Part shown: positions 8,560-63,780 of the stretch, piece by piece
Position numbering within the stretch: position 1 is the first letter of the stretch
Layout of the letters: every line of letters begins with the position of its first letter
DNA from: Leucoraja ocellata
Lineage: Eukaryota
Length of the DNA stretch: 64,000 nucleotides
NCBI GenBank assembly: GCA_036785375.1
Contig: JAWMAR010000748.1
Location: forward strand, 496,001 to 560,000
Direction: 5' to 3'
Notes under the pieces: generated by a model
Told to the model about the DNA's origin: nothing
Seen by the model: only the letters and a program-made list of their open reading frames with translations
Database searches by the model: none
Made by a program: the position numbers and the translations under genes

Positions 8560-8985
8560 GTTGGAAGGAACTGCAGATACTGGTTTACACTGAAGATAGG
8601 CACAAACTGCTGGGGTAACTCAGCGGGATATACAGCATCTCTGGAGAGAAGGAGTGGGTAACGCTTTTGGTCGAGACCTTTCTTCAGACAGAGAGTCAGG
8701 GGAGAGGAAGTCTAAAGGTGTGAAAACGACAGATCAAAGCAGACGATGATAAAGAAATGTAGCGTGGTTCATTGTTAGCTGAGGGGAAGATGACAAGGAA
8801 TCAGGAAAATTAATCAGAAGGACGGTACTAGTCGGAGAACTCGGGTGGGGGAGGGATGGAGAGAGAGGAGATGCAAGGGTTACTTGAAGTTAGAGAAATC
8901 AATATTCATACCACTGGGGTGTAAGCTGCCCAAGCGAAATATGAGATGCTGTTCCTCCACTTTGTGTTGGGCCTCACTCTGACAA
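8560..8985 (-). mobile_element. Penelope-like 3' fragment
   Basis: Reverse complement of the GIY-YIG C-terminus (QHLIFRLGSLHPSGMNIDFSNFK) plus terminal repeat. Confidence 0.8.
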
Positions 8986-11035
8986 TAAGCGAGTTCGGTA
9001 TTCCGATTGCGCATGCCCAGGTCATAGGTCACTCGCTATAAAAAGTCTGGGCAACTGTGGTGCTGCGTTGTGTGCAGGATTGCGTATCGTCGGATGTCGT
9101 GGTCCGGCCTGGCTCTCCGGCGCTGTGTGCTAAGTGTTGCTGCTGGGCCCCGTCCCTGACTGGAGGTGTCCGGGGTAGGCCCTGGGCTGGCGGGTCGGCC
9201 CTGGACTTGCAGCCGCTGGCTCCAGCTCGGCTCTGCCTGCCCCGCTAGGTTGGTCGGCAGCACTGGACTGGCGGGGTCGGGCCTAGCGCTGTGGCCGCTG
9301 TGGAGTTGTTGCTGGGCCGTGCCCGTCATCTTCCAGGAGTCCCATCCGTGTCCGCTTCCCTCTGTCTTCCTATCACTTATGAGATCTGCTGTGGATCTGT
9401 TGCAACAGAAAGCAGACTGCAGTAGCCAAATCAAGTTTGAATCCAATCTACTAATTCACTGTGGCTCCCTTATGCCTAGATCTTCTGGATCAGCCTTCCA
9501 TAATGAACCGAGTCAAATACTGATTCTGTTTGCCATCCAGAAATCTAGGTGGAAATGTGTACTGCCAGACAGTGAGTAAGGGTAGGATTGGGTTCATATG
9601 CTGCCTGCTCATTAATAGTGATTTGGGTAGTTTACCAGAAGTATTGCCGTGGTGAGTCAACGTTGATGGCAGTGAATCAAAATGAAATATTTATTAACTT
9701 GCGATTTAATGGTACTCTTCTGTTATCTGCAATGCATTGGAATTGCCGCAGGGCCTGTTTTGCGGAATGCTCCCAGTTCACAGGGTAAATGCCACAATGA
9801 GAGGAATGAAATCTAACAAACATTTAGAAAGTGTTAAAACTGTAATCCTCACCTCTTTGGAAAATAAGCCAAAATACTTTTTATATGTTTGGGCTGTTGA
9901 TCTTTAGCCAATACTGGTATTTAAAATCACTGGAATGAAGTTAAACAGCAGTTTGCATCTGGAATTAAATCCAAATTTTAAAAAATGACCAATGGCCACC
10001 AATTAGTCCCGTATAGTTAAAGATGTCCCAGAATACTCGCCTGGCATCTTATCCATTGCTTTTGTGCTCATAATGGTGGGATTGTCAAGGAGGCTAACTG
10101 TGTCCTGATAACCGGAGTGGATATTTTGTTGCTCTGCAGCAACATTTTGAGACAAAATAGACCCTCTTGACCCCTCTCCTCTTTATTTTCCTCCCTTCTC
10201 TTGTGCCCTACCGAGGTGTGCAACCATTTCTCTCAATATCTCGTTATCCCTTTCCCTCCTCCTCCCCATCCCAGTCCCCTTCCACCCATATCCCTTCCAC
10301 TGGCCTCACATTTCACTCCTCTCCTCACCGTACACCCTCTTGTCTCCTTTACATCTGTAGCCTTTGATCACCCATCCACCAACCAAACCCCCTCTCATCT
10401 GTGTACACCTACAACATCAGGCTTTGTCTAAGCCCTCCCTTTTTCCCAGCTTTCTCCACTCCCCCTACTACAGTCAGTTTGAAGAAGGGTCCCGACCCGA
10501 AATGTCAGCTGTCCATGTTCTCCAGAGATGTCGCCTGACCTGCTGAGTTACTCCAGTACTTTGTGTCTTCTTGTAAACCAGCATCTGCAGTTCCTTGTGT
10601 TCCATCTTTACCATTGCCTGTCCAATAGCAACATCAAATATATGGTATTCCAGTTAGCTTAGCAAACCTGACTTACAGTGCCATCTATAATGTTGTCTAA
10701 TTTTCTCCAGTACACACCAAATCCTCTGCTTTATGTCCTTGATTTCTTCCGTCCCTCTGTTTGCAAAGTAATGGATCCACAAGCCAAACCAGAAAGACAT
10801 TTTTAGAAAATGAGTTGGGAGATCAGAGAACTAAGTACGAAAGCCATTTTAGAATACTCCTAATTTCACAACGCACATATCAACTCATGACAGGATTAAT
10901 TCCAATTTGTTTTCAAGAAAAACAGCCGTTAATATTTCAGATGTAGGCTCTAACTGGAATTTTATTTGTGCCACGTTCTGATTTGTACGTGGGGTAGTTT
11001 TGAGTTTTGTGAATTTTACTGTTTCTTCCTTCCAG

Positions 11036-11216
11036 TGACTTGGTTACTCATGTTGTGGCAGAGAATAACACTGGCAACGAGGTTTTGGAATTGCTGGAAA
11101 AACAGAATGGAATTTGCAGAGCTGGGTTTGATGCAGTCCTGGTGGATATTGCATGGTTTACTGAGAGTATGGGGGCGGAAAGACCCCTGGAAGTGGAAAA
11201 TCGCCATCGACTTCAG
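11036..11216 (+). CDS. POLM: DNA polymerase mu, coding exon 2 (BRCT)
   Basis: ttccttccag|T; (S)DLVTHVVAENN...LVDIAWFTESMGAERPLEVENRHRLQ; donor GT at 11217; 181 nt, phase 2 to 0. Confidence 0.92.
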
Positions 11217-11362
11217 GTATTTAATGAAAACTTTCTTGGATAACACAATTTAATAATTTACAAAAGTGTAAGCATTCATTTTTTGAGATGCAAGGAACTG
11301 CAGATGCTGAAATCTTGAATAAAATACAATGTTGGAGTATCTTGGCAGGTCATGCAGCATCT

Positions 11363-11660
11363 TAGTTTAGTTTGGATATACAGCGCTTTGGGCCGAGTCC
11401 GCATTGACCAGCGATCCCCGCACATTAACACTGTTCTACACACATTAGGGCCAATTTTACATTCATAACCAAGCCAATTAACCTACAAACGTGTGTGTCT
11501 TTGGAGTGGAGGAGGAAACCGAAGATCTCGGCAAAAACCCACGTGTTCACAGGGAGAATGTACGAACTCCGTACAGACAGCACCCGTACAGATCGAACCC
11601 GCGTCCCTGGTGCTGAAAGCACTGTAGGGCAGGAACTCTACTGCTGCGCCACCATGCCGC
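11363..11660 (-). mobile_element. HE1-type V-SINE
   Basis: tRNA head with GGTTCGATC B-box, V-domain, (AAACT)n tail. Confidence 0.82.
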
Positions 11661-13262
11661 ATTTGTGGAAGGAACGGATAGGTGGCATTTAGGGTTCGGG
11701 CCTAGTTTGTGATATTTTGTCAAATACAACAGGAAGGTTTGATTCATGATTAGGTCATTGTTGATATTGATAGCTATAATTGCATAGTTCACCCTCAATA
11801 TCTGGCTCTGTGTCCACGTTGATCCCATCTGGAAGCAACAGTGACTGGAAGGCCATCAATGTAGTGAGAGGTCAAGCAGTCCATCTGCTGGCCTTTCCTG
11901 TGCAGAAGCCGTCCGTAACCGAACACTGGGAGAATATGACCTGCGTGTCAGGATCGAACCCGGGTCTCTGGTGCTGTAAGGCAGTAGCTCTACCACTGTG
12001 CCACCGTGCCGCCTGGGCTGTACTGCTCTATGTTCTGACAGGGGACTGGTGAGGGAACAGGATGTGGAGAGCAATAGAGATTGGCCTCAGATCCTGTTCA
12101 TGAGAGGAGGCAATAGGAGCCAGGAGTCCCATAAGGTTCAACGCTCCTCCATCAGCGATGGATATACAGTGGTCTGCAGGGACAGCCTGAATCACGACCA
12201 AAGTGTCCTTCATTTCAACTATTTTAAAACTTTTAGGAAGCTGAGCAGAGTCTGACTTGTCTGTGTCAGGTAGTGAGGTCAGCAGCCACTTTAATGCGAG
12301 TTTCAGCTTTATACTAAACTAAACTAATATTTAGCTTGGGCAGCTTACAATCCAGCATTATGAATTTTGCTAACTTCAAGTAACCCTTGCATTCCCTCTC
12401 TCTCTCTCTCTCTCTCTCTGTCCCTCCCCCACCCCACAGTTCACTGTCCTGATTAATATTACTGTTTGTTTGCCTCCTTGTAAACTTCCCCACAGCTAAC
12501 ATTGAACCATTCTACATTTCCTTAGCATCGTCCGCTTTGATCTTTCGTTTTCACACCTTACCCATCCATATCTCTAGACTCTTTCTAGTAAAGGCCTAGC
12601 CTGCCCAACCTCTCCCTATGGCTCAAGCCCCTAAGTCCTGGTACCATCTTCATGAATCCTCTGCACAATGTTTGCAGTTCAGCAACATCCTTCTTATAGC
12701 AGGGTGATCAAAACCGAACGCTGTATCGAGTGCGGCCTTGCCAACATCCTGCACAAGTCTTTTTGTACATGATAGAATCAAATCTATTCAAGAGTACTTT
12801 GCAGGTACTATGGCAACTAAGAATCATTTAGACTGGTGCATGGTTAGGGCAGGTTGAGAGGGATATGGGCAAAATGCAGGCAGGTTGGACTGGTGTAGAT
12901 GAGAGATATTGGCTGGTGTGGGCAGGTTGGGTGGACGGACCTTTCCACACTGAGACTCTATGACTCTAGTATTATTTCTCCATATATTCCGAATAAGAGA
13001 AGTCAATGAAGCTTGATGTTGACAGATGAGCATTTGAAATACTGAACATATTTTCTAAAGAGTTGCAGTCAATGGTTACATCAGTATAGTTCCGTGTTGC
13101 TTTGCAACAGGGATTTCCCAACATTGCAATTTAACTTGGTTGTTTTTATTCACTCACTGTAAGTGGACATTGCTGGAGTAGGCAATGTTGAATGCCTGTT
13201 CACTGTGTGTTTAAGAGGCCGGACCTTGGCATTGAATGGCTGCAATCCCTGTGGAAAAGGGT

Positions 13263-13650
13263 CTCTGGAATTTAGAAGGATGAGAGGGGATCTTATTGAA
13301 ACATATAAGATTGTTAAGGGTTTGGACACGCTAGAGGCAGGAAACATGTTCCCGATGTTGGGGGAGTCCAGAACCAGGGGCCACAGTTTAAGGATAAGGG
13401 GTAAGCCATTTAGAAAGGAGATGAAGAAACACAATTTCACACAGAAAGTTGTGAGTCTGTGGAATTCTCTGCCTCGGAGGGCGGTGGAGGCCAGTTCTCT
13501 GGATACTTTCAAGAGAGAGCTAGATAGGGCTCTTAAAGATAGCGGAGTCAGGGGATATGGGGAGAAGGCAGGAACGAGGTACTGATTGTGGATGATCAGG
13601 CATGATCACATTGAATGGCCTACCCCTGCACCTATTGTCTATCGTCTATC
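13263..13650 (+). mobile_element. CR1 LINE 3' fragment
   Basis: LEFRRMRGDLIETYKI...TRGHSL...WNSLP. Confidence 0.9.
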
Positions 13651-19401: not shown

Positions 19402-19924
19402 GGGGTGGATGATTGCAACCAAAGATCCTATAGATAGACCAGTCCTACTAAATGCAATGGGCTGACGTGTAGTACGCAACGGAGCGGAACGTGGGCCTTT
19501 TTTTCATCAATTTCAGTAACCCGACCCGACCCGACTCGCAGTGTAACCAACGTTGCGGGGGAACAGTTTGTGTTAATAAATTATAATTCTGAAAATGAGG
19601 AGAAGATTTTTACCAAAGCACTTTTATTTTTACGAGGATGTTTCCGTAACTGGCCTCCGTCTCCGCTATGGGATCTTTGGTGCGGAGACGGAAGCCGGTT
19701 ATGGAAATGGGGCCAAACATTACCCATGAATCTGCCCATGACCATACTATGTCTTTTTCGTCGAGTGGACTATCTTGCTCGCTATAGGATCTTTGTTTGC
19801 AACCTTCACGGGGTCCGCCCTGTTTCGATGAATACAATCAACCCGGCGTGCACAATCAAATAACATCAAATAGGACAGGTTGTCCTACAACTTTAGGCTG
19901 TGCACGCCATACGCAAGAAGAAGA
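19402..19924 (+). mobile_element. HDV-ribozyme retroposon, copy 1 (interrupted by a MITE)
   Basis: TSD agtcacttaagt (19390-19401 / 19925-19936). Ribozyme split by the insertion at 19420-19795, and the catalytic C is replaced by T at 19829. Confidence 0.9.
19420..19795. mobile_element. MITE with 14-bp TIR (P-element-like or hAT-like)
   Basis: TIR CAAAGATCCTATAG / CTATAGGATCTTTG; 8-bp TSD attgcaac / tttgcaac. Confidence 0.8.
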
Positions 19925-20067
19925 AGTCACTTAAGTCTTAATGTTGATGCAGAAAAATGAAATTACTTTCTAGAGGAAAAATTAAGATTAGAAAATGTCA
20001 AGATTGAGCGTTGCTGTTCTAGCTATTTGCAAGAAATGAAGAAAAGTCTCCTTTTTCTTTGCTGCAG

Positions 20068-29585: not shown

Positions 29586-30094
29586 ACAATAGACAATAGG
29601 TGCAGGAGTAGGCCATTCGGCCCTACGAGCCAGCACCGCCATTTAATGTGATCATGGCTGATCATCCCCAATCAGTACCCCGTTCCTGCCTTCTCCCCAT
29701 ATCCCCTGACTCCGCTATTTTTAAGAGCCCTATCTAGCTCTCTCTTGAAAGCATCCAGAGAACCTGCCTCCACCGCCCTCTGAGGCAGAGAATTCCACAG
29801 ACTCACAACTCCCTGTGAGGAAAAAGTGTTTCCTCGTCTCCGTTCTAAATGGCTTACTCCTTATTCTTAATCTGTGGCCCCTGGTTCTGGACTCCGCCAA
29901 CATCGGGAACATGTTTCCTGCCTCTAGCGTGTCCAAACCCTTAACAATCTTATATGTTTCAATAAGGTTCCCTCTCATCCTTCTAAACTCCAAAGTGTAC
30001 AAGCCCAGCTGCTCCATTCTCTCAGCATATGACAGTCTCGCCATCCGGGGAATCAACCTTGTAAACCTACGCTGCACTCCCTCAATAGCAAGAA
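29586..30094 (-). mobile_element. CR1 LINE 3' fragment nested in a GC-rich non-autonomous element
   Basis: [10 protein letters not shown]...TRGH; host sequence resumes on both sides. Confidence 0.88.
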
Positions 30095-30427
30095 TTGCTC
30101 TCCCACGGTTGGGGGCCTCGAGCCCTCCGTTGACGGGACAATCTTGACTCTCGTAGCCGGCGGCGTTTGGACCCTCTGCATCGGAGCGATCAGCTCTTGC
30201 ATCGGGGGGAATGTCAGCTCCCCCGCGCCATCGATCGAACCCCGGGTTGGGGCTGGTCGAGCCTCTGTGTCGTTGGAGCCTCTCGACTCGGCCTCACAAT
30301 ACTGTGGCGGCATGGTTACCAAATCAAGTCGTGTTTGTTTTTTTCTTTTTTCCAATTTTGTGAACAAAATTGATTTGGGGACGTCTGTAAAAATGGAATC
30401 CATCCATAACCCGAGGGTGGCCTGCAA

Positions 30428-33117
30428 AAAGGCAGACCAATTGAATAATTACTTTGGTCCTGTCTTCTCTAAGGAAGACATAAATAATCTGCCGGAAATA
30501 GCAGGGGACCGGGGGTCAAATGAGATGGAGGAACTGAGTGAAATCCAGGTTAGCCGGGAAGTGGTGTTGGGTAAATTGAATGGATTAAAGGCCGATAAAT
30601 CCCCAGGGCCAGATAGCCTGCATCCCAGAGTACTTAAGGAAGTAGCCCCAGAAATAGTGGATGCATTAGTGATAATTTTTCAAAACTCTTTAGATTCTGG
30701 AGTAGTTCCTGAGGATTGGAGGGTAGCTAATGTAACACCACTTTTTAAAAAGGGAGGGAGAGAGAAAACGGGGAATTACAGACCAGTTAGTCTAACGTCG
30801 GTAGTGGGGAAACTGCTAGAATCAGTTATTAAAGATTGGATAGCAGCACATTTGGAAAGTGGTGAAATCATTGGACAAAGTCAGCATGGATTTATGAAAG
30901 GTAAATCATGTCTGACGAATCTTATAGAATTTTTCGAGGATGTAACTAGTAGAGTGGATAAGGGAGAACCAGTGGATGTGTTATATCTGGACTTTCAGAA
31001 GGCTTTCGACAAGGTCCCACATAAGAGATTAGTATACAAACTTAAAGCACACGGTATTGGGGGTTCAGTATTGATGTGGATAGAGAACTGGCTGGCAGAT
31101 AGGAAGCAAAGAGTAAGAGTAAACGGGTCCTTTTCACAATGGCAGGCAGTGACTAGTGGGGTACCGCAAGGCTCAGCGCTGAGACCCCAGCTATTTACAA
31201 TATATATTAATAATTTGGACGAGGGAATTGAATGCAACATCTCCAAGTTTGCGGATGACACGAAGCTGGGGGGCAGTGTTAGCTGTGAGGAGGGTGCTAG
31301 GAGGCTGCAAGGTGACTTGGATAGGCTGGGTGAGTGGGCAAATGCATGGCAGATGCAGTATAATGTGGATAAATGTGAGGTTATCCACTTTGGTGCAAAA
31401 ACAGGAAAGTAGACTATTATCTGAATGGTGGCCGATTGGGAAAGGAGAAGATGCAGTGAGACCTGGGTGTCATGGTACACCAGTCATTGAAAGTAGGCAT
31501 GCAGGTGCAGCAGGCAGTGAAGAAGGCGAATGGTATGTTAGCATTCATTTTTTTTGGTTTTTTTTTGTTTATTTTATTAGAAGTTAATACATCACAAAAC
31601 AGTACAGTGGCACCTAATTTTAGGTGCCAACTATGTAATAACGTAATCCATTCTATGTACAACCTCTAGTTTTATGTTATAAGAAAGAAGTAAGCAGAAC
31701 AAGAAAAAGAAAGCAATAGAAAGGGGAAAAAGTGGAGAAATAGATGGTAGAGAGTAGAAAAACGTGAAGTGTGTATATAAAAAATAAAAAAAGGAAGAGA
31801 GAAAGAGGAAAGTAGAAATAGAAGAGAAGGCCCCTTAAAAGAGAATTTTTCAAATCTGTATTCGGAGATGTAGCTCTATCCGCGTCATGAACTGAAATCA
31901 GCAATCCTTACGGCACCGCTGCATCACATGATTCCAAAAAGTCGATGAAAGGAGACCAACTCTTTAAGAATTGGACATATTTATCTATTAGTCGGAGTCT
32001 CATTTCTTCAAGGCGTGCTATGTCCATCATATTCCTAATCCACATTTTAACAGTTGGTGTGGTTGTATTTTTCCAAAATTTAAGTATCAATTTCTTTCCA
32101 ATTATTAACCCATAATTAAAAAAAACATTTTAATCTTTATTTAAATTGGTATCTTCTCCTATTATTCCAAATATAATCCATTTCGTTTTGGGTTCTATTC
32201 TTGACTTGAAAATCTTTGTAAATATATCAAATATATCACTCCAAAATTTATTCAACTTTGTACATCCAACAAATGAGTGTGTTATATTAGCGTTTTGAAA
32301 CAAACATTTATCGCATCTGGGAGAGACGTTTGGATAAAATTTATTCAACCTCGTTTTTGAATAATATAGTCTATGTAATAATTTGAATTGAATTAAATTA
32401 TGTCTTGCATTAATAGAACAGTTATGTGTATTCATCAAATATTTTTCCCATCTAAGTGCGAATGGTATGTTAGCATTCATAGCAAAAGGATTTGAGTATA
32501 GGAGCAGGGAGGTTCTACTGCAGTTGTACAGGGTCTTGGTGAGACCACACCTGGACTATTGCGTACAGTTTTGGTCTCCTAATCTGAGGAAAGACATTCT
32601 TGCCATAGAGGGAGTACAGAGAAGGTTCACCAGACTGATTCCTGGGATGTCAGGACTTTCATATGAAGAAAGACTGGATAGACTCGGCTTGTACTCGCTA
32701 GAATTTAGAAGATTGAGGGGGGATCTTATAGAAACTTACAAAATTCTTAAGGGGTTGGACAGGCTAGATGCAGGAAGATTGTTCCCGATGTTGGGGAAGT
32801 CCAGGACAAGGGGTCTCAGTTTAAGGATAAGGGGGAAATCTGTTAGGACCGAGATGAGGAAAACATTTTTTCACACAGAGAGTGGTTAATCTGTGGAATT
32901 CTCTGCCACAGAAGGTAGTTGAGGCCAGTTCATTGGCTATATTTAAGAGGGGGTTAGATGTGGCCCTTGTGGCTAAAGGGATCAGGGGGTATGGAGAGAA
33001 GGCAGGTACAGGATACTAAGTTGGGTGATCAGCCACTATCATATTGAATGGCGGTGCAGGCTCGAAGGGCCGAATGGCCTACTCCTGCACCTATTTTTCT
33101 ATGTTTCTATGTTTCTA
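30428..33117 (+). mobile_element. CR1 (HER1-like) LINE, 5'-truncated, interrupted by L1
   Basis: RT motifs in ORF 30144-31412 ([35 protein letters not shown]), C-terminus in ORF 32467-32889, (TTCTATGT)n tail. Confidence 0.95.
31549..32457 (-). mobile_element. L1-clade LINE 3' fragment
   Basis: Cys-rich C-terminus (QFKLLHRLYY...CDKC...HSFVGC...FW), poly(A) tail, 23-bp TSD gcgaatggtatgttagcattcat (31526-31548 / 32458-32480). Confidence 0.92.
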
Positions 33118-38385: not shown

Positions 38386-39191
38386 GTCTGTGTTGCAGTT
38401 TGGACAAGATGGAGTGTCTGGCCTGCTTGCTGCTGTGTGATCCTAAGTAACGTTAAGCTTGTGCTGCCATATGGTGTCACCACATGAAGTGAATCGCACC
38501 ACCCAGAGGGCAGATAATGTGCCCCTCTGCATTTTCCATGTTGCTGTTGGGTGACACATGTGATGCTGCAGTTAGTCACACTCCCTCACAGCCCCACAAC
38601 AAGAACGCTTCAATCCTGACCTCTGGTGCTCACAGCATGTTGAGTCTGCATCTTCTCCCCATGACGGCGTGGGTCAGCCCTGGCTGTTCCGATTTCCAAC
38701 CACATCCCAAAGACTGTTAGTAGGGTAGACACAAAACACTGCAGTAACTCGCCGAGTGAGGCAGCATCCCTGGAGAACCCGGGCAGGTGACGTTTCAGGT
38801 CACGACCCTGCTTCCATGTTTCTATTGCTAGTAGATGAATTGGCCACATCAAATTTCTGCTCGTGTAGGTAAAAAGTAAATGAATCAAATGGGTGTTGAT
38901 GAGCTTGGGAGAGATTAATTGCAGGGTTTTAGGGGAATAACTACTAACTCCATCTATCTCCAGTCCTTTCCCACCTCAGTCATTCTATCTCCCTACTCCC
39001 ATTGGGCAGAAGCTTGAAAGCGCATACCACACCAGCTTCTTCCCCCTCTGTTATCAGGCTTCTAGATGGTCCATCCATAAGCTAGGGTACTGTCCGATTC
39101 TCCTCTAGCCCATTGCGGACATTGGACTTTGTCTCTGGAGCTGATGCATTATAACGCTGAGAAAGGTAACTTTCCCTACACTCCACCTATT

Positions 39192-39328
39192 CTTCTTCTT
39201 GCGTATGACGTGCACGGCCTAAATTTGTGGACAACCTGTTCTATTTGATCTTATTTGATTGTGCACGCCGGGTTGATTGCATCCGTCGAAACAGGGCGGA
39301 CCACGTGAAGGTTGCAATCTCCCACCCC
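39192..39328 (-). mobile_element. HDV-ribozyme retroposon, copy 2
   Basis: Full-length reverse-complement copy with perfect TSD cactccacctatt (39179-39191 / 39329-39341), inserted in a Rex1-like 3' fragment. Confidence 0.9.
39275..39328 (-). ncRNA. Minimal HDV-like ribozyme (predicted)
   Basis: GGGGUGG GA GAUUGCA ACC UUCACGU GGU CCGCCCU GU UUCGA C GGA UGCAAUC: all stems intact, J4/2 CGGA instead of CGAA. Confidence 0.8.
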
Positions 39329-40878: not shown

Positions 40879-41968
40879 AATGGAATTGGGGCTCAACACC
40901 TCCCTGTGTGCCTGGGTCCTGGACTTTCTCACCGCCAGGCCCCAGGTAGTCAAGATGGGAGGGAATACATCGGAGTCCCTCACCCTGAGCACAGGATCGC
41001 CCCAGGGTTGCGTCCTCAGCCCCCTATTGTACTCCCTGTACACACATGATTGTGGCTAGGTTCAGCTCCAATTCAATAATTAAGTTTGCTGATGACACTG
41101 TGGTGGTGGGCCTGATCTCAGACAATGATGAGAAGGCCTACCGGGAGGAGGTGGCTGATCTAGCACTCTGGTGCCAGGATAACAGCCTCCTCCTGAACGT
41201 CAAAAAAACGAAGGAGCTGATCATGGACTTTAGGAGGGCACATCATCCGAGGACGTACACTCCATTGAGGATAAATGGGGATCCTGTGGATAGGGTGAGC
41301 TGCTTTAAATATCTGGGAGTCCACATCTCTGAGGATATGACATGGTCATCACACGCCTCCGCACTGGTGAGTAAGGCAAGGCAGCGCCTTTACCACCTCA
41401 GGCAATTGAGGAAATTCAGAGTGTCTCCGAGGATCCTCCAGTGCTTCTACGCAGCGGCGGTGGAAAGCATCTTGTCCGGGAACATTACCATCTGGAATTG
41501 CTCTGCCAAGGACAAGAAGGCTCTGCAGAGAGTAGTGCGTTCGGCCGAACGCACTATGGGAACTTCACTCACCCCCCTGCAGGAACTATGCAACAGGAGG
41601 TGCAACTCCAGAGCAAACAAAATCATGGGAGACCCCCTGCTCCCCTGCAACGGTCTGTTCCAGCTGCTACGGTCAGGCAAACGCCTCCGTTGCCATGCTG
41701 TGAGAACAGTGAGGTTGAGAAGGATTTTCTTCCCAGAGGCAATTCGGACTGTAAACGCCTATCTCACCAGGGACTAACTCTACAGAACGTTTTTCCTTCC
41801 ATTCTTTATTATGAAAAAGAATATGTGTGTTAAGATTGTGTTTATAATTTGTTTGGTTGTTTTGTTGTTTGTCTTTTGCTCAAAAGTCCGCAAGCATTGC
41901 CACTTTCATTTCACTGCACATCTCGTATGTGTATGTGACAAATAAACTCGACTTGACTTGACTTGACT
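40879..41968 (+). mobile_element. Rex1/Babar-clade LINE 3' fragment
   Basis: PQGCVLSP-type motif, IIKFADDTVVVGLI, LNVKKTKELIMDFRR, KARQRLYHLRQL; hairpin + AATAAA + (GACTT)n tail. Confidence 0.9.
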
Positions 41969-45383: not shown

Positions 45384-45650
45384 AAAAAGGTTTTCCTTTA
45401 AAACCATCCAGATAGTTTGAAATATTTAGTTGGCTGTTCAGAGAGCTCATTAAATGTTTAGTTAGTGGTTTTAATATGATTAAGTGGGACCTGTCTGAAG
45501 AAGGGTCTTGACCCGAAACGTCACCCATTCCTTCTCTTCAGAGATGCTGCCTGTCCTGCTGAGTTACTCCCAACATTTTGTGTCTACCTTCGATTTAAAC
45601 CAGCATCTGCAGTTCTTTCCGACATATTAAGTAGAATCATGGCTCTTTGT

Positions 45651-45704
45651 GGGGTGGGAGATTGCAACCTTCACGTGGTCCGCCCTGTTTCGACGAATAC
45701 AATC
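45651..45704 (+). ncRNA. Minimal HDV-like self-cleaving ribozyme (predicted)
   Basis: P1 GGGGUGG/CCGCCCU, P2 GAUUGCA/UaCAAUC (one mismatch here), P3 ACC/GGU, L3 UUCACGU, 1-bp P1.1, J4/2 CGAA with catalytic C at 45694. Confidence 0.8.
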
Positions 45705-45791
45705 AACCCGGTGTGCACAATGAAATAAGATCAAATAGAACAAGTTGTCCTACAACTTTAGGCTGTGCACGCTGTACGCAAGAAGAAGAAG
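45651..45791 (+). mobile_element. ~140-nt retroposon with 5' HDV-like ribozyme and (GAA)n tail, copy 3
   Basis: Starts GGGGTGGGAGATTGCAACC, ends ...TACGC(AAG)n. Imperfect 12-bp TSD atggctctttgt / atgtttctttgt. Four homologous copies in the window. Confidence 0.9.
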
Positions 45792-45955
45792 ATGTTTCTT
45801 TGTGGTGATACAAAACTGCAGATGCTGGAATCTGGAGTAAAAAACAAACTGCTGAACATGTGTGGAGCAAAAGGACGATGGGTACTTTGCCTCCATAGAT
45901 GCTGCTTGACCTGCTCAGTTCCTCAGATAGACACAAAATGCTGGAGAAACTCATG

Positions 45956-49424: not shown

Positions 49425-50393
49425 CTGTTTCCGTTCTGTATCTCTAAACTAAACAAAGTTAAAAAACGAAACCTGGCCCCATCCATCTATTTCTCCCCCA
49501 TCTGATTCCAGCTATCATCCAGCAACCTGTGTTCCACCCTCCTAGGTGCTGCTTCACATTGGTCATCTTTCCCACCCTCTCCCAGCCCTGATCAAGATTA
49601 ACACTCGCCTTTTGTCTGAACAGAGGCTATTTATTCAGCGTTCTGTTTTTTGTGGCAGTGCAAACTGTTCTCGAAAAAGAAGAATCCGTGCCTATTTTGC
49701 CCCCTTGTTCCTACTGGGCGTTTCCAGTGTTATTAAGAAGCAGGTTTCAGGGCAACACGCCTTCTTATTCTTGTTGAGCAGCTGGAGGGGCTGTGTGAAC
49801 TATATCTTGTCAATGGAGAATACACAAAAGGACAATAGGCATGGAAAGAAGCAGCGGAAATTAGGAAACTATTCACTTGTAATACTTGGCCAACTTTCAA
49901 AGCCTCCATTTAGCTCTAATTCAATGGAGTATTTCGGTCATGTTTAAGTTAGTGGTTGCATTGATTTATAGTAGGTTGGATATCTGACTATTGGCAGTTA
50001 AAGTTATCAAAACACATTATTGGAGCAGACAAAACAGTCACGTAATCTCTTTAAAAGTCAACAGTAATTTGTATAATTCGCAGACTGTAAGGTAATATTT
50101 CTTGAGTGTCTTAAATTTCTGGTAAAACAAAACTTAAATTAGTGTGCCCTTTTTGTAGAGGATCGTGTAAAATTATCATAGATCCAGTCCTATGCGTAAC
50201 AGCACCGAATATTATATCTGCCAAATAGGCTTTCCATCCAACGGTTGAAATATCTGTTGTCCTATTGTTACTCCATTCAGCGTGGCCATTCCAAACTGGG
50301 CGTTAGGTACCTGTTATTCCTCTTTCCCATCCACTCTCATACACACTAGAGCCCATCGGCAGAGGCAGATTGACCTACATACCATTCTGAATC

Positions 50394-50533
50394 TTCTTCT
50401 TCTTGCGTATGGTGTGCACAGCCTAAAGTTCTAGGACAACTTGTTCTATTTGATCTTATTTGATTGTGTATGCCGGGTTGATTGCATTCGTCGAAACACG
50501 GCGGACCACATGAAGGTTGCAATCTCCCACCCC
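50394..50533 (-). mobile_element. HDV-ribozyme retroposon, copy 4
   Basis: Full-length; TSD accattctgaatc / accatgctgaatc. Ribozyme at 50480-50533 has one P1 mismatch and one L3 change, with CGAA and P2 intact. Confidence 0.9.
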
Positions 50534-54188: not shown

Positions 54189-56305
54189 TTTATTTATAAA
54201 GCGCTTTTAGACAACATCAGTTACCACAAAGTGCTGTACATGGGAAGTCAACAAAAAGTTATTACAAACTACTAAAACCATTAAGACGACAGGACTATAA
54301 AAACAGTAAAAATTAAAAGACATTAAAAGCACTAAAAACAGGAACAATGTCTCAGCCAGTGTCGAAAGCCAGTGAATAAAAGTGAGTTTTTAGGGAGGAT
54401 TTAAAGATGGACAGTGAAGGGGCCTGTCTGATCTGCAGCGGCAAGGTGTTCCAGAGTGCCGGGGCAGCAACAGAAAAGGCTCTATCCCCTCTGATCTTCC
54501 GCTTAGACCTTGGTACCTCAAGGAGCAGCTGATCCGCTGACCTGAGGCACCGGGCAGGAACATATAGGTGGAGCAGCTCAGAGAGGTAAGGCGGGGCGAG
54601 GCCATTCAATGATTTAAAAACAAATAAAAGAATTTTAAAATGAACTCGAAAGTGCACTGGGAGCCAGTGAAGGGAGGCCAAAATTGGCGTAATGTGCTCC
54701 CTCTTTCGAGTTCCGGTTAAAAGGCGAGCGGCAGCATTTTGGACCAACTGGAGACGAGCCAACGAAGCTCGTGAGACTCCAGAGTAGAGTGCGTTACAGT
54801 AATCCAGCCAAGATGAAATAAAGGCATGGATTATTGTTTCAAAATGCTGCCGCTCGAGAATGGGCTTCACCTTTGCCAGCTTCCTTAGGTGAAAGAAGCT
54901 GGACTTAACCACTGCGCCTATTTGTTTATCTAATTTAAAATCACCGTCCATCATAAAACCCAGGTTTAAAACTGTTGGCTTTACGAACACTGCCAGTGGA
55001 CCCAAGTCAACAAAGGGAGGTTCACGGCAGCCATTAGGGCCGAACAAAATCACTTCTGTCTTTTTTTCGTTAAGTCCCAGAAAGTTTATGGCCATCCAGG
55101 ACTTAATGTCCTCAAGACAAGACAGAAGTGATTTTAAGGAATAATTATCTTCTTTCCTGAGTGGCATATACAACTAGATCTCACAGGAAACAGACTATTG
55201 ACCAACAAACCTACTGATTCCTATAGCTATCTTGACGACACTTTTTCCCACCCTGCTTCCTGTAAAGACTCTATCCCCTACTCCCAATATCTACATCGCA
55301 TCTGCGCCCAGGATGAGGTGTTCCATACCAGGGCATCAAAGATGTCCTCATTCTTTAGGAAACAGGGGTTCGCCTCTTCCATTATAGATTAGGCTCTCCT
55401 CTATATCCCGCAACTCCGTTCTTGCTCCCCCTCCCCCCATTCGTAACAAGGGCAGCGTCCCCCTTGTCCTCACCTTTCACCCCATCAGCCGTCGCATACA
55501 GCATACAAACCTCCAACATTTTCGCCACCTCCAATGGGATCCCACTACTGGCCACATCTTCCCGCCTCCACCCCTTTCTGCTTTCCGCAGAGATAGTTCC
55601 CTCCCCAACTCCCTAGTCAACTCGTCCCTTCCCACCCAACCTACCATCTCCCCGGATACTTTCCCCTGCACTGCAGGAGATGCAACACCTGTCCATTTAC
55701 TTACCCCCTCAACTCCATCCAAGGACCCAAACAGTCTTTTCCAGGTGAGGCAGAGGTTCACTTGCATCTCCTCCAACCTCACCTACTGTATCCGCTGTTC
55801 CAGGTGTCAACTTCTCTACATCGGCGAGACCAAGCGCAGGTTCGGCAATCGTTTCGCTGAACACCTCTGCTCAGTCTGTCTTGACCTACCTGATCTCCCG
55901 GTGGCGCAGCACTTCAACTCCCCCTCCCATTCCCAATCTGACCTTTCTGTCCTGGGCCTCCTCCATTGTCAGCGAGGCCAAGTGTAAATTGGAGGAACAG
56001 CACCTCATATTTTGCTTGGGTAGTTTACACCCCAGCGGTATGAACATTGACTTCTCGAACTTCAGTTAGCCCTTGCTTTCTCTATCCATCCTCTCCCCCT
56101 TCCCAGTTCTCACACCAGTCTTACTGTCTCCGACTACATTCTATCTTTGTCCCGCCCCCTCCCCTGACATCAGTATGAAGAAGGACCTCGACCCAAAACG
56201 TCATCCATTCTTTCCCTCCAGAGATGCTGGCTGACTCGCTGAGTTACTCCAGCATTTTGTGTCTACCTTTGATTTAAACCAGTAACTGCAGTTCTTTCCT
56301 ACACA
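54111..56305 (+). mobile_element. Degenerate Penelope-like element (RT C-terminus, GIY-YIG endonuclease, 3' repeat), interrupted by L2
   Basis: NFTWTISDISLPFLD (54111-54155) resumes at 55174 with KPTDSYSYL..SHPASCKDSIPYSQ, then FTCISSNLTYCIRCSRCQLLYIGETKRR..RFAEHL and EEQHLIFCLGSLHPSGMN, followed by the abundant terminal repeat. Confidence 0.88.
54156..55173 (-). mobile_element. L2 LINE 3' fragment
   Basis: ORF 54352-55173 with LDYCNAL, LQLVQNAAARLL, LASLHWLPV, LKTHFYSLAF; (AAT)n tail; TSD CTAGAT (54150-54155 / 55174-55179). Confidence 0.92.
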
Positions 56306-61439: not shown

Positions 61440-63780
61440 TCTAACCAAGTTTACCAATGACGTGAAAATAGGTGGAAGGGCTTACTATGGTGAGAATATT
61501 GTGATTCTGCACCGGATATGGATAGATTGAGTGGGTGAAAACTTAGTAAATGGAGTTTAATGTGTGAAAGCGCAAGGTGGTGCACTTCAGTCCAGGCCGT
61601 CCCTGGGTTAGGAACACTCAAAGTACAGATACCACTTACAAACAAGCTTCCATTATGTCAAATTCAAAACTCCGCTACACGGACATACATCTGTTGCTAT
61701 GAACGGCAGAACTAGCCTCACTCTCTCACTCCGCTTTTAGTAATTGTTCTTATCATTAAGCTGGAAAGAGAGAAGATTGGCAAGGATGCTGTCAAGGGAT
61801 TGAGTTATAGGGGGAGGTTAGTCAGGCTCAGACTTTATTCCTTGGGGTGCAGGAGGCTGAGTGATCTTTTAGAAGTGTATACAATCATGAGGGGAATAGA
61901 TAGGTTGAATGCACAGAGTCTTTTTCCCACAGTAGGGGAATCAAGAACCAGAGGGCATAGGTTTAAGGTGAGAGTTGCAACATTTAATAGGAATCTGAGG
62001 GGCAACTTTTCAACTCAGATGGTGGTGTATATGTGGAATGAGCAGCCAGAGTAGGTAGTGGAGGCAGGTATTATAACAACAATTAAAAGACACTTGGACA
62101 AGTACATTTGTTAGGACAAGGGTGAAGGGCTATGGGCCAAACACAGGAAATGAGACCAGCTTAGATGGGCCACTTGGTCGGATGGACAAATTAGGTTGTT
62201 TGACGTTATGGCTCTGTCTAAGACCCTCTCTTCTGTCCGTGCTTTTGATGCTATTCACTACATTACTGTGGAGGTACTGTATGGATACCACATCGACTGA
62301 TTTTGTGTGTTTTCCGACTTATGGAAATACCCGACTTAAGAACATCTGTAAAAGCAGAGCGTGCCGAGCTCTGGGTACAATCTGTAAGAGGAACTGAAAG
62401 GCAGATTATTATCGACACTTGCAATACAGTGCGCCAGAGATGCTTCCTGGCAGAGGAAGAGTGCGGGAGCGGTGTGCTTGTACATCTGTTCACACGTCCA
62501 GGAGGGGGGCCAGCTGTGACTGCCAACCCAACAGACAGCATGATGCCATATTCAGATCGCGTTGCCCCACACTATTGACTTGCCTGGGATAGCCAGCATG
62601 GTTATGTGTGTGACAGGTCGTGCCTCACTAACTTGAGAGAGTGACAAAGCAGATTGATGAAATGGATGTTGTATACATGGATTTTAGTCATACTTTAAGT
62701 AAGGACCCTCTTGGTAGGCTGATCCAGAAGATTAAGATGTATGGGATTCACAAAGATTTGGTTGTATGGATCCAGAACCGGCTTAGTCATAGAAGACAGA
62801 GTGTTGTGGTGGAACGTAAACGTTCTGGTTGGAGGTTTGTGACCAGTGGAGTTACGCAGGGATCTGTGCTGGGACCTCTGCTGTTTGCCATATATACAAA
62901 TGACCTAGGCATTGTACATGTAAATGGGTTTGTGAGTAAGTTTGGTGATAATGCCAACATTGAGGAGTTGCAGACAGTGATGAATGCTGTCAGAAGAAAC
63001 AGTGGGATATTGATCAGCTGCAAAACTAGGCAGAGAAATGACAATGGAGTTTAACCCAAGCAAGTGTGAGGTGTTGCACTTTGAGAAGTTGAATGTGTGT
63101 AGTTAATGGCATTGATGTGCAGAGAGGGATCTTGGAGTCCAGGTTCATAGCTCACTGAAGTTGCCAGCACTAGTAATTAGGGTGGATCAGAAGGCTTGCC
63201 TTCATTGCTAGGGCCATTGAATATAATGGTCAGGAAGTCACAATGCTGCTCTGAAGGACTTTGGTTAGGCCACGTTTGGGGAATTGCATGCAGTTCTGTC
63301 CACATTGTCCCATTACAGGAACGATGTGGAGACTTTGGAGAGGGTACAGAGGAGGTTTACCAGACCGCTGCCTGGATTAGAGGGTCTCAGCTACAGGGAG
63401 AGGTTGGATAGACTTGGATTAGAACATCAGAGCTTAATGGAAGTATATACAATTTTGAGCAGCATAGATAGGGTAGACAGTCAGAACCATTTCCCCAGGG
63501 TGGTAATGACCAACACTAGACGGCATAGCTATAAGGTGAAAGGGGGAAAGTTTGATGGAAATGTACGAAGCAGATTTTTTACACAGAGTGGTGGGGGCTT
63601 GGACCACATTGCCACGAGTGGTGGTGGAGGCAGATATGTTAATGGCATTTGAGAAGCTTTTAGATAGGCACATAGAGGTATAGGGAGTGGAGGGATATGG
63701 ATCATGTACAGGCAAATGAGATTAGTTTAGCTAGGCATCATGTTGGACACAAACATTGCAGGCATGTTCCCATTCTATGT
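61440..63780 (+). mobile_element. Cluster of degenerate CR1 fragments
   Basis: DVVYMDFS, SGVTQGSVLGPLLF, LERVQRRFTR motifs with frameshifts; non-CR1 spacer ~62200-62580. Confidence 0.75.

Follow-up and report, generated by a model that had tools for sequence, protein, structure and literature searches.

A predicted P4-less HDV-like ribozyme at the 5' end of a short, non-autonomous Vingi-type LINE derivative in Leucoraja ocellata

The element and its surroundings

The stretch of DNA considered here, called the window, comprises 64,000 nucleotides of the Leucoraja ocellata genome (contig JAWMAR010000748.1, positions 496,001 to 560,000, forward strand). It carries four copies of a short retroposon of about 140 nt, one of which begins with the 54 nt that were flagged in a preliminary description as a minimal HDV-like ribozyme. 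The features, in window coordinates and with the basis of each assignment in brackets, are the following.

45639..45650 (+): left target-site duplication, 12 nt, two mismatches to the right copy (sequence)
45651..45791 (+): whole short retroposon copy, 141 nt (repeat alignment)
45651..45704 (+): predicted minimal HDV-like ribozyme, 54 nt (descriptor fit)
45651-57/45680-86 (+): P1, 7 bp (descriptor)
45660-66/45698-704 (+): P2, mismatch at 45699 (descriptor)
45667-69/45677-79 (+): P3, 3 bp (descriptor)
45670-76 (+): L3, 7 nt (descriptor)
45689-93 (+): 5-nt loop replacing P4 (descriptor)
45694-97 (+): J4/2, CGAA (descriptor)
45694 (+): predicted catalytic C, first base of J4/2 (C44 of the element), within a CpG (descriptor)
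45705..45731 (+): rest of the parental 5' UTR part (element nt 55-81), beginning the 5' arm of a long 3' hairpin (alignment to locus L225; fold of the copy at L010)
45732..45749 (+): 18-nt linker matching neither end of the parent LINE; a predicted hairpin of 7 bp joins some of it to the 3' part
45750..45779 (+): part from the 3' end of the parent LINE, with the final ORF codons, the stop at 45759-61 and a short 3' UTR (alignment to the parent LINE)
45780..45791 (+): (GAA)n tail (sequence)
45792..45803 (+): right target-site duplication (sequence)
50393..50533 (-): second copy, full length, one P1 mismatch (descriptor, alignment)
39190..39328 (-): third copy, full length, J4/2 CGGA, exact target-site duplication (descriptor, alignment)
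19797..19926 (+): fourth copy, first 11 nt missing, T at the catalytic position (alignment)

A scan for a host gene, covering 24 of the 66 long open frames of the window, gave mobile-element domains only. Other fragments of non-LTR retrotransposons, with zf-RVT or RT matches, lie at 32133-32555 (-), 30033-31409 (+), 40989-41774 (+) and 62632-63051 (+), and an open frame at 55388-55984 (+) with a weak GIY-YIG match (E 8e-4) is perhaps a Penelope-like remnant. An abundant palindromic repeat family is found just upstream of the element (45501-45624) and at dozens of other places in the window, and a 223-nt imperfect palindrome occupies 1681-1903.

Predicted fold of the head

The fold was parsed with an HDV-like descriptor built from the HDV consensus and checked against rows of the theta-ribozyme table. 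The flagged copy is read as a P1 of 7 bp, a J1/2 of 2 nt, a P2 of 7 and a P3 of 3, an L3 of 7 nt, GU, a 5-nt loop and CGAA. The order P1, P2, P3, L3, P1.1, J4/2 of the nested double pseudoknot is thus followed within 54 nt, as had been proposed, and the catalytic C assigned earlier to 45694 is indeed the first base of J4/2. Some details need correction. P1 opens with the G-U wobble that had been reported (G1-U36), to which a second wobble, U5-G32, must be added. The 7-bp P2 is valid for the consensus, whereas the flagged copy has an A at 45699 and forms six of the seven pairs; the copy starting at 39328 (-) is the only one in the window without a helix mismatch. The head had also been ascribed to all four copies; it is whole in three, the one at 19797-19926 being the exception. 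By its short L4 and the lack of P4, the modelled head is of the minimal HDV-like form, and a search for a long-P4 variant of it gave 14 matches, all of them small local insertions or duplications.

One explanation that has to be weighed is that a repeat without ribozyme history fits the fold by chance. The descriptor matches the window three times, each time in a copy of the one element, and 20 dinucleotide shuffles of the window, searched on both strands, gave no match, which argues against chance. A chance match would be in keeping with two other results. Neither the window nor an intact copy had an Rfam match, the flagged head being without a match at the cut-off of the CPEB3_ribozyme model (RF00622, 35 bits), and the plain folding energy of the four heads is ordinary (z 0.57 to 1.35). 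An ordinary energy is expected, since the pseudoknot is beyond what the folding program can model. In nested folding of the 54-mer, P1 has a probability of 0.8-1.0, and the competing GU-UUCG-AC hairpin, earlier suspected of sequestering the catalytic C, is predicted at 0.05 (5%) or less. When the 141-nt RNA is folded in the same manner, P1 and P2 compete and C44 is paired with a probability of 0.28. Self-cleavage of the head is predicted from this modelled fold.

Copies, boundaries and decay

The initial proposal that a short retroposon of high copy number begins with this head is borne out by the 3.44-Gb assembly. A 36-nt 3' motif has 1,685 exact occurrences and a 28-nt head motif 1,828, and from the presence of the head motif in 16 of 100 places of the 3' motif the element is roughly estimated to occupy some 11,000 places. 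The boundaries were established on 100 of the 1,685 3'-motif places listed, picked by their 3' end only; 13 are duplicates of another place and 87 are independent. Among these listed matches, G1 is reached by 73 of the 87 independent 3'-anchored places, while 6 are classed as starting within the head and 8 as lacking it; two of the headless ones are LINE 3' ends, and two others perhaps represent one insertion. L033 and L048, considered as possible LINE ends, were rejected as 5'-truncated short copies. A separate observation on the assembly is that L001 and L002 lie on the same contig, 480 kb apart, and that many loci occur twice with shared flanks, as haplotype or segmental duplicates.

A target-site duplication (median 12 nt) was called in 60 of the 73 copies that reach G1, as compared to only 2 of 73 in a control with mismatched flanks. 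Of the 60 duplications, 20 stop immediately before G1, 23 do so one base to either side and 17 farther away. The base preceding G1 is T in 44 of the 73 copies, and because this T belongs to the duplication in 23 of the 44, it largely reflects target preference. The short element has thus been inserted independently at its various places, with duplications and a tail of simple repeats. In DNA-type sequencing runs of seven organisms, 8,800-13,600 contigs each align to the element, with loose ends accumulating at G1 or the preceding base; such loading indicates that the family is common to related species.

Decay has affected most copies in the genome, among them the flagged one. The sampled copies diverge on average 5.9% from the majority head, only 34 of the 73 full-length heads still fit the descriptor, and the catalytic C is kept in 64 of 73. 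Genome-wide, next to the 1,828 intact 28-nt head motifs, 205 carry C44T, 623 carry G45A and 675 are loop-CpG variants. For a loop C the corresponding estimate is about 240, as against the 205 C44T variants. At the loop CpG, 13 C-to-T and 23 G-to-A changes were counted by eye among the first 100 matches listed; since the excess of G-to-A is general, and also present at the loop CpG, these counts do not set C44 apart as spared beyond ordinary CpG decay. The excess of G-to-A over C-to-T at several CpGs of the heads (623 vs 205; 23 vs 13) is in itself unlike symmetric decay. In four other organisms, head variants at a depth of at least 10% occur only at positions 32, 42 and 45; all are fold-compatible, but three of the four are CpG changes, which leaves this evidence weak. 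The thousands of natural variants constitute a ready mutational library.

The parent LINE

One 3'-anchored place, L097, extends upstream into an ORF with a Cys/His end and led to a LINE family that had escaped the preliminary description. Near full-length, broken copies of about 3.2 kb are present at L225-L228, of which L225 begins at the same G1 as the short element and has a duplication and a GAA tail. The GAA tail had first pointed to an RTE parent (150 matches with DUF6451), an idea that was set aside once the actual parent LINE had been found. Pfam searches with six open LINE pieces gave matches to endonuclease and RT and a weak one to zf-RVT. P0001, with 1019 aa the closest intact protein (RT identity of 75-77% to L225 and L227), contains endonuclease and RT families only, and RNase H had no Pfam match in the six pieces or in P0001. 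All copies in the genome examined are broken, so that the single-ORF status of the parent rests on P0001. We take the parent LINE to be a Vingi-type element, a name that is derived from its architecture and motifs. A compact single ORF with an APE endonuclease and an RT, and without RNase H, is the architecture given for Vingi in the accessible part of PMC13708176, and by its sequence the parent LINE appears to be of this type. In an RT tree drawn without named Vingi or Ingi sequences, and from which the L243 row (two elements mixed) and P0002 (short overlap) were left out, a compact group of about 1000-aa proteins is separated from four distant loci.

Aligned to the parent, the short element consists of LINE nt 1-81, the 18-nt linker and the last 39 nt, and it is a bipartite derivative of the two ends of the LINE without an ORF. 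L163 and L155 represent different, independent deletions of the LINE. This composition bears on the possibility that the element is an ordinary Pol III SINE, with a tRNA, 5S or 7SL head that merely resembles a ribozyme. Its size, copy number, tail and duplications are SINE-like, whereas nt 1-81 can be aligned with the 5' end of the LINE itself and nothing in Rfam matches up to E 10; we consider a Pol III origin highly improbable.

The head is present, in part or whole, in 14 of 19 independent LINE 5' loci. The parental heads carry C44 and A32 in 14 of 14 cases each and U45 in 12 of 14, and they differ from the head of the short element at two sites (32 and 45), both fold-compatible; A32 creates a Watson-Crick U-A pair where the short element has the U5-G32 wobble. 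As the loop of the parental heads is equally short, the loss of P4 predates the short element.

Two further observations concern the LINE and its ends. In five LINE copies (L190, L174, L191, L189 and L180) the 5' part, including the head, is inverted relative to the 3' part, as in twin priming. In the flagged copy, the 5'-derived and 3'-derived parts form a long predicted hairpin (45709-45775), which suggests that the UTRs of the parent LINE may pair with each other over the ORF.

The fold in distant LINE relatives

An alignment of 36 relatives was used to retrieve 80 metagenome loci, 23 of which contain the endonuclease start and 19 of which have at least 239 nt upstream. Seven of these 19 relatives, making up five families (L251, L256, L272/L303, L288/L289 and L302), fit the fold; it lies on the sense strand, 188-236 nt ahead of the endonuclease. 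No fit was obtained in 30 shuffles per locus for the 19 relatives, nor in 18 upstream regions when T, A or G was placed at the catalytic position, when the reverse strand was searched, or in 50 shuffles; across all 311 kb, the descriptor matches these heads only. The other 12 relatives have no fit. They include L271 and L255, with decayed heads as judged by eye, and four members of a distant group; by eye, no head is visible upstream in L245, L246 and L257.

The catalytic C is present in all five families, and L272 has a duplication adjoining G1 and a GAA tail. Helix covariation, suggested as a check in the preliminary description, is found across six families, with 95 of 96 cells paired and at least two pair types at 13 of 16 positions; because the descriptor itself requires pairing, the weight of this covariation rests on position, strand and controls. 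All five relative families possess P4, the ribozyme being 67-98 nt overall. Since the P4-less form is seen in the flagged family only, the covariation supports the fold of the clade and not the activity of the shortened form. The ribozyme-bearing elements are scattered through the tree group of about 1000-aa proteins. To judge from these sequences, the results support a fold that recurs, its position unchanged, in five distant LINE relatives, with helices that have changed and yet pair, which is a further argument against a chance match.

Sister families and the CPEB3 ribozyme

Prior annotation in Rfam is lacking for the flagged family, whereas sister families pass the RF00622 model. The main loci are the following.

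L329:1512-1585 (+): head with a 74-nt HDV-like fold with P4, above the CPEB3 cut-off (related loci L325-L354)
L344:1501-1571 (-): head of an older family, matching the CPEB3 consensus including P4 (Rfam)
L351:1501-1579 (-): relative of L344, running directly into a weak Vingi-type C-terminus match; resembles another bipartite element
L288:3617-3690 and L289:2199-2272: metagenome Vingi-type LINE headed by a CPEB3-like ribozyme (Rfam, 55.6 bits)

Against the mammalian CPEB3 model (cut-off 35 bits), sister Vingi-type heads score 55-65 bits, the head of L288 reaching 55.6; in the skate assembly, 56 of 59 scored candidates from sister families are above the cut-off, the best at 64.7 bits. A Vingi-type ORF follows on the same strand in 17 of 30 fetched heads (some of them duplicates), and these ORFs are closer to P0010 than to P0001. 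The agreement of the L344 head with the CPEB3 consensus extends to P4, and the L351 head continues into sequence that weakly resembles the Cys/His end (E 0.04). With sister families exceeding the cut-off, a chance match is strongly disfavoured, and we give it practically no weight. Two family-level observations may be added: the L329 group (L325-L354) is a second, younger Vingi-type family with copies 93-97% alike, and a third family (L335, L339, L341) carries a 64-nt form of the head.

According to the part of the work of Bendixsen (2021, PMC8233481) that was available, the CPEB3 ribozyme had previously not been found outside mammals. The simplest reading of the sequence likeness is that it descended from a Vingi-type insertion, which we regard as likely. 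The alternative, convergence on a constrained fold, explains the likeness in P1, P2 and P4 less well. The flagged family is not the closest relative of the CPEB3 ribozyme. Taken more broadly, we lean towards the proposal that the Vingi-type clade starts with HDV-like ribozymes, that the one of the flagged family would be the smallest (theta-sized, P4-less, some ten thousand copies), and that the mammalian CPEB3 ribozyme would be a domesticated Vingi 5' end, with these elements as its missing outgroup. Since Vingi-type heads score above the cut-off of the CPEB3 model, in one case with a likeness that includes P4, the origin of the CPEB3 ribozyme becomes directly testable.

Proposed mechanism

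We think it quite probable that a 140-nt element, non-autonomous and derived from a Vingi-type LINE, has these 54 nt as its 5' end, and that they encode a P4-less HDV-like ribozyme that is active in self-cleavage. In the cycle that we propose, host RNA polymerase II, starting at a promoter upstream, would transcribe through a source copy. The head would then fold and cut just before G1, with C44, as predicted from the fold, being catalytic. The freed RNA would start at G1, and its compact fold could shield the uncapped end, as suggested by the accessible part of the work on R2 (PMC11331408). The LINE protein would bind the shared 3' end and copy the RNA in trans by target-primed reverse transcription, a role suggested by the shared 39 nt, the tail and the duplications. 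Cleavage before G1 would make new copies start at G1, which is where they are observed to start.

A precise 5' end is also expected if the head acts as an internal promoter from which transcription begins at G1, its fold being inherited from a ribozyme ancestor, weak or dead after the loss of P4 and serving at most as a 5' shield. Pr77 of L1Tc, described as promoter and ribozyme at once, offers such a precedent (PMC4035085, as far as available), and in R2 templates the fold itself is stated to boost insertion efficiency (PMC11331408, same proviso). The CpG counts of the head, with C44T at 205 against about 240 estimated, should be set beside this reading as well. It is less easily reconciled with the retention of the catalytic C and every core element in both parent and derivative, with the existence of natural ribozymes of like size and loop length in the available theta-ribozyme rows, and with the free variation of helix sequences among relatives, which is unexpected for a shared promoter motif. 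As a replacement for self-cleavage an internal promoter thus seems unlikely to us, although a promoter at G1 may coexist with the ribozyme. For a self-cleaving head there is also a practical side: according to the available part of PMC13708176, Vingi elements are entering gene-insertion tools, and a native 5' end that processes itself would matter for the design of templates.

Comparison with known systems

HDV-like ribozymes are described at the 5' ends of R2, RTE, Baggins and L1Tc/ingi elements and of their short derivatives (PMC6765202, PMC7936874, PMC4035085, each as far as accessible). The closest parallels are NARTc, RIME and NARTco, short internally deleted L1Tc/ingi derivatives with the Pr77 HDV-like ribozyme; like the flagged element they retain the two ends of a LINE and have the fold as their exact 5' end (PMC4035085, accessible part). 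They occur in trypanosomes and have a ribozyme of about 77 nt with P4 and a parent that encodes RNase H, whereas the flagged element, from an animal genome, has 54 nt without P4, a parent without RNase H and a total length of about 140 nt. Ingi is the sister clade of Vingi (PMC13708176, accessible part). The joining of LINE 5' and 3' ends through an internal deletion is likewise seen in bipartite non-autonomous Vingi and RTE elements (Kojima 2018, PMC5786205) and in R2 SIDEs (PMC3414825), in the parts of these papers that were at hand. The same part of Kojima (2018) gives six clades with 5' ribozymes (R1, R2, R4, RTE, Ingi as well as LOA), Vingi not being among them.

Minimal HDV-like ribozymes without P4 were described by Kienbeck (2024, PMC10879173), and the following rests on the available parts of that paper and its supplement. 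The four theta ribozymes that were tested cleave and are inactive with a C-to-U change. Tailed phages account for nearly 99% of the theta ribozymes, which often follow tRNAs; the genomes searched also included those of human, mouse and protists. They share with the flagged head the lack of P4 and equal segment lengths, and rows 1782 and 9300, known as table entries, have the same P3-L3 core and a near-identical 5-6-nt loop, so that the minimal geometry noticed at the outset has natural counterparts. J1/4 is GU in the flagged head and GA in these two rows, and the flagged head is absent from the table matches listed for five of its segments, the first two places for each. In contrast to the phage-borne ribozymes behind tRNAs, it opens a retroposon within an animal genome of 3.44 Gb. 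An animal example would widen the range of minimal HDV-like ribozymes, earlier almost exclusively a phage matter (PMC10879173).

The mammalian CPEB3 ribozyme (RF00622) is identical to the flagged head in L3, in the GU after P1 and in the CGAA junction, as read from the Rfam consensus line. The flagged head differs from it in the sequences of P1-P3, in the lack of P4 and of an Rfam score, and in being repeated, whereas the CPEB3 ribozyme is single-copy and intronic.

In the accessible portions of the literature on Vingi and ribozymes, no Vingi ribozyme is reported; those on shark SINEs, minimal forms and the origin of CPEB3 contain no description of the element, and the available main text of a 2026 preprint does not mention Vingi, shark or skate. 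A prior description is possible, Repbase, Dfam and patents lying outside the search. Ribozyme-headed short LINE derivatives as such are already known from trypanosomes and insects (NARTc, RIME, R2 SIDE), a precedent that the preliminary description had overlooked; what is apparently new is a Vingi clade with a ribozyme, a P4-less form in an animal and the link to CPEB3.
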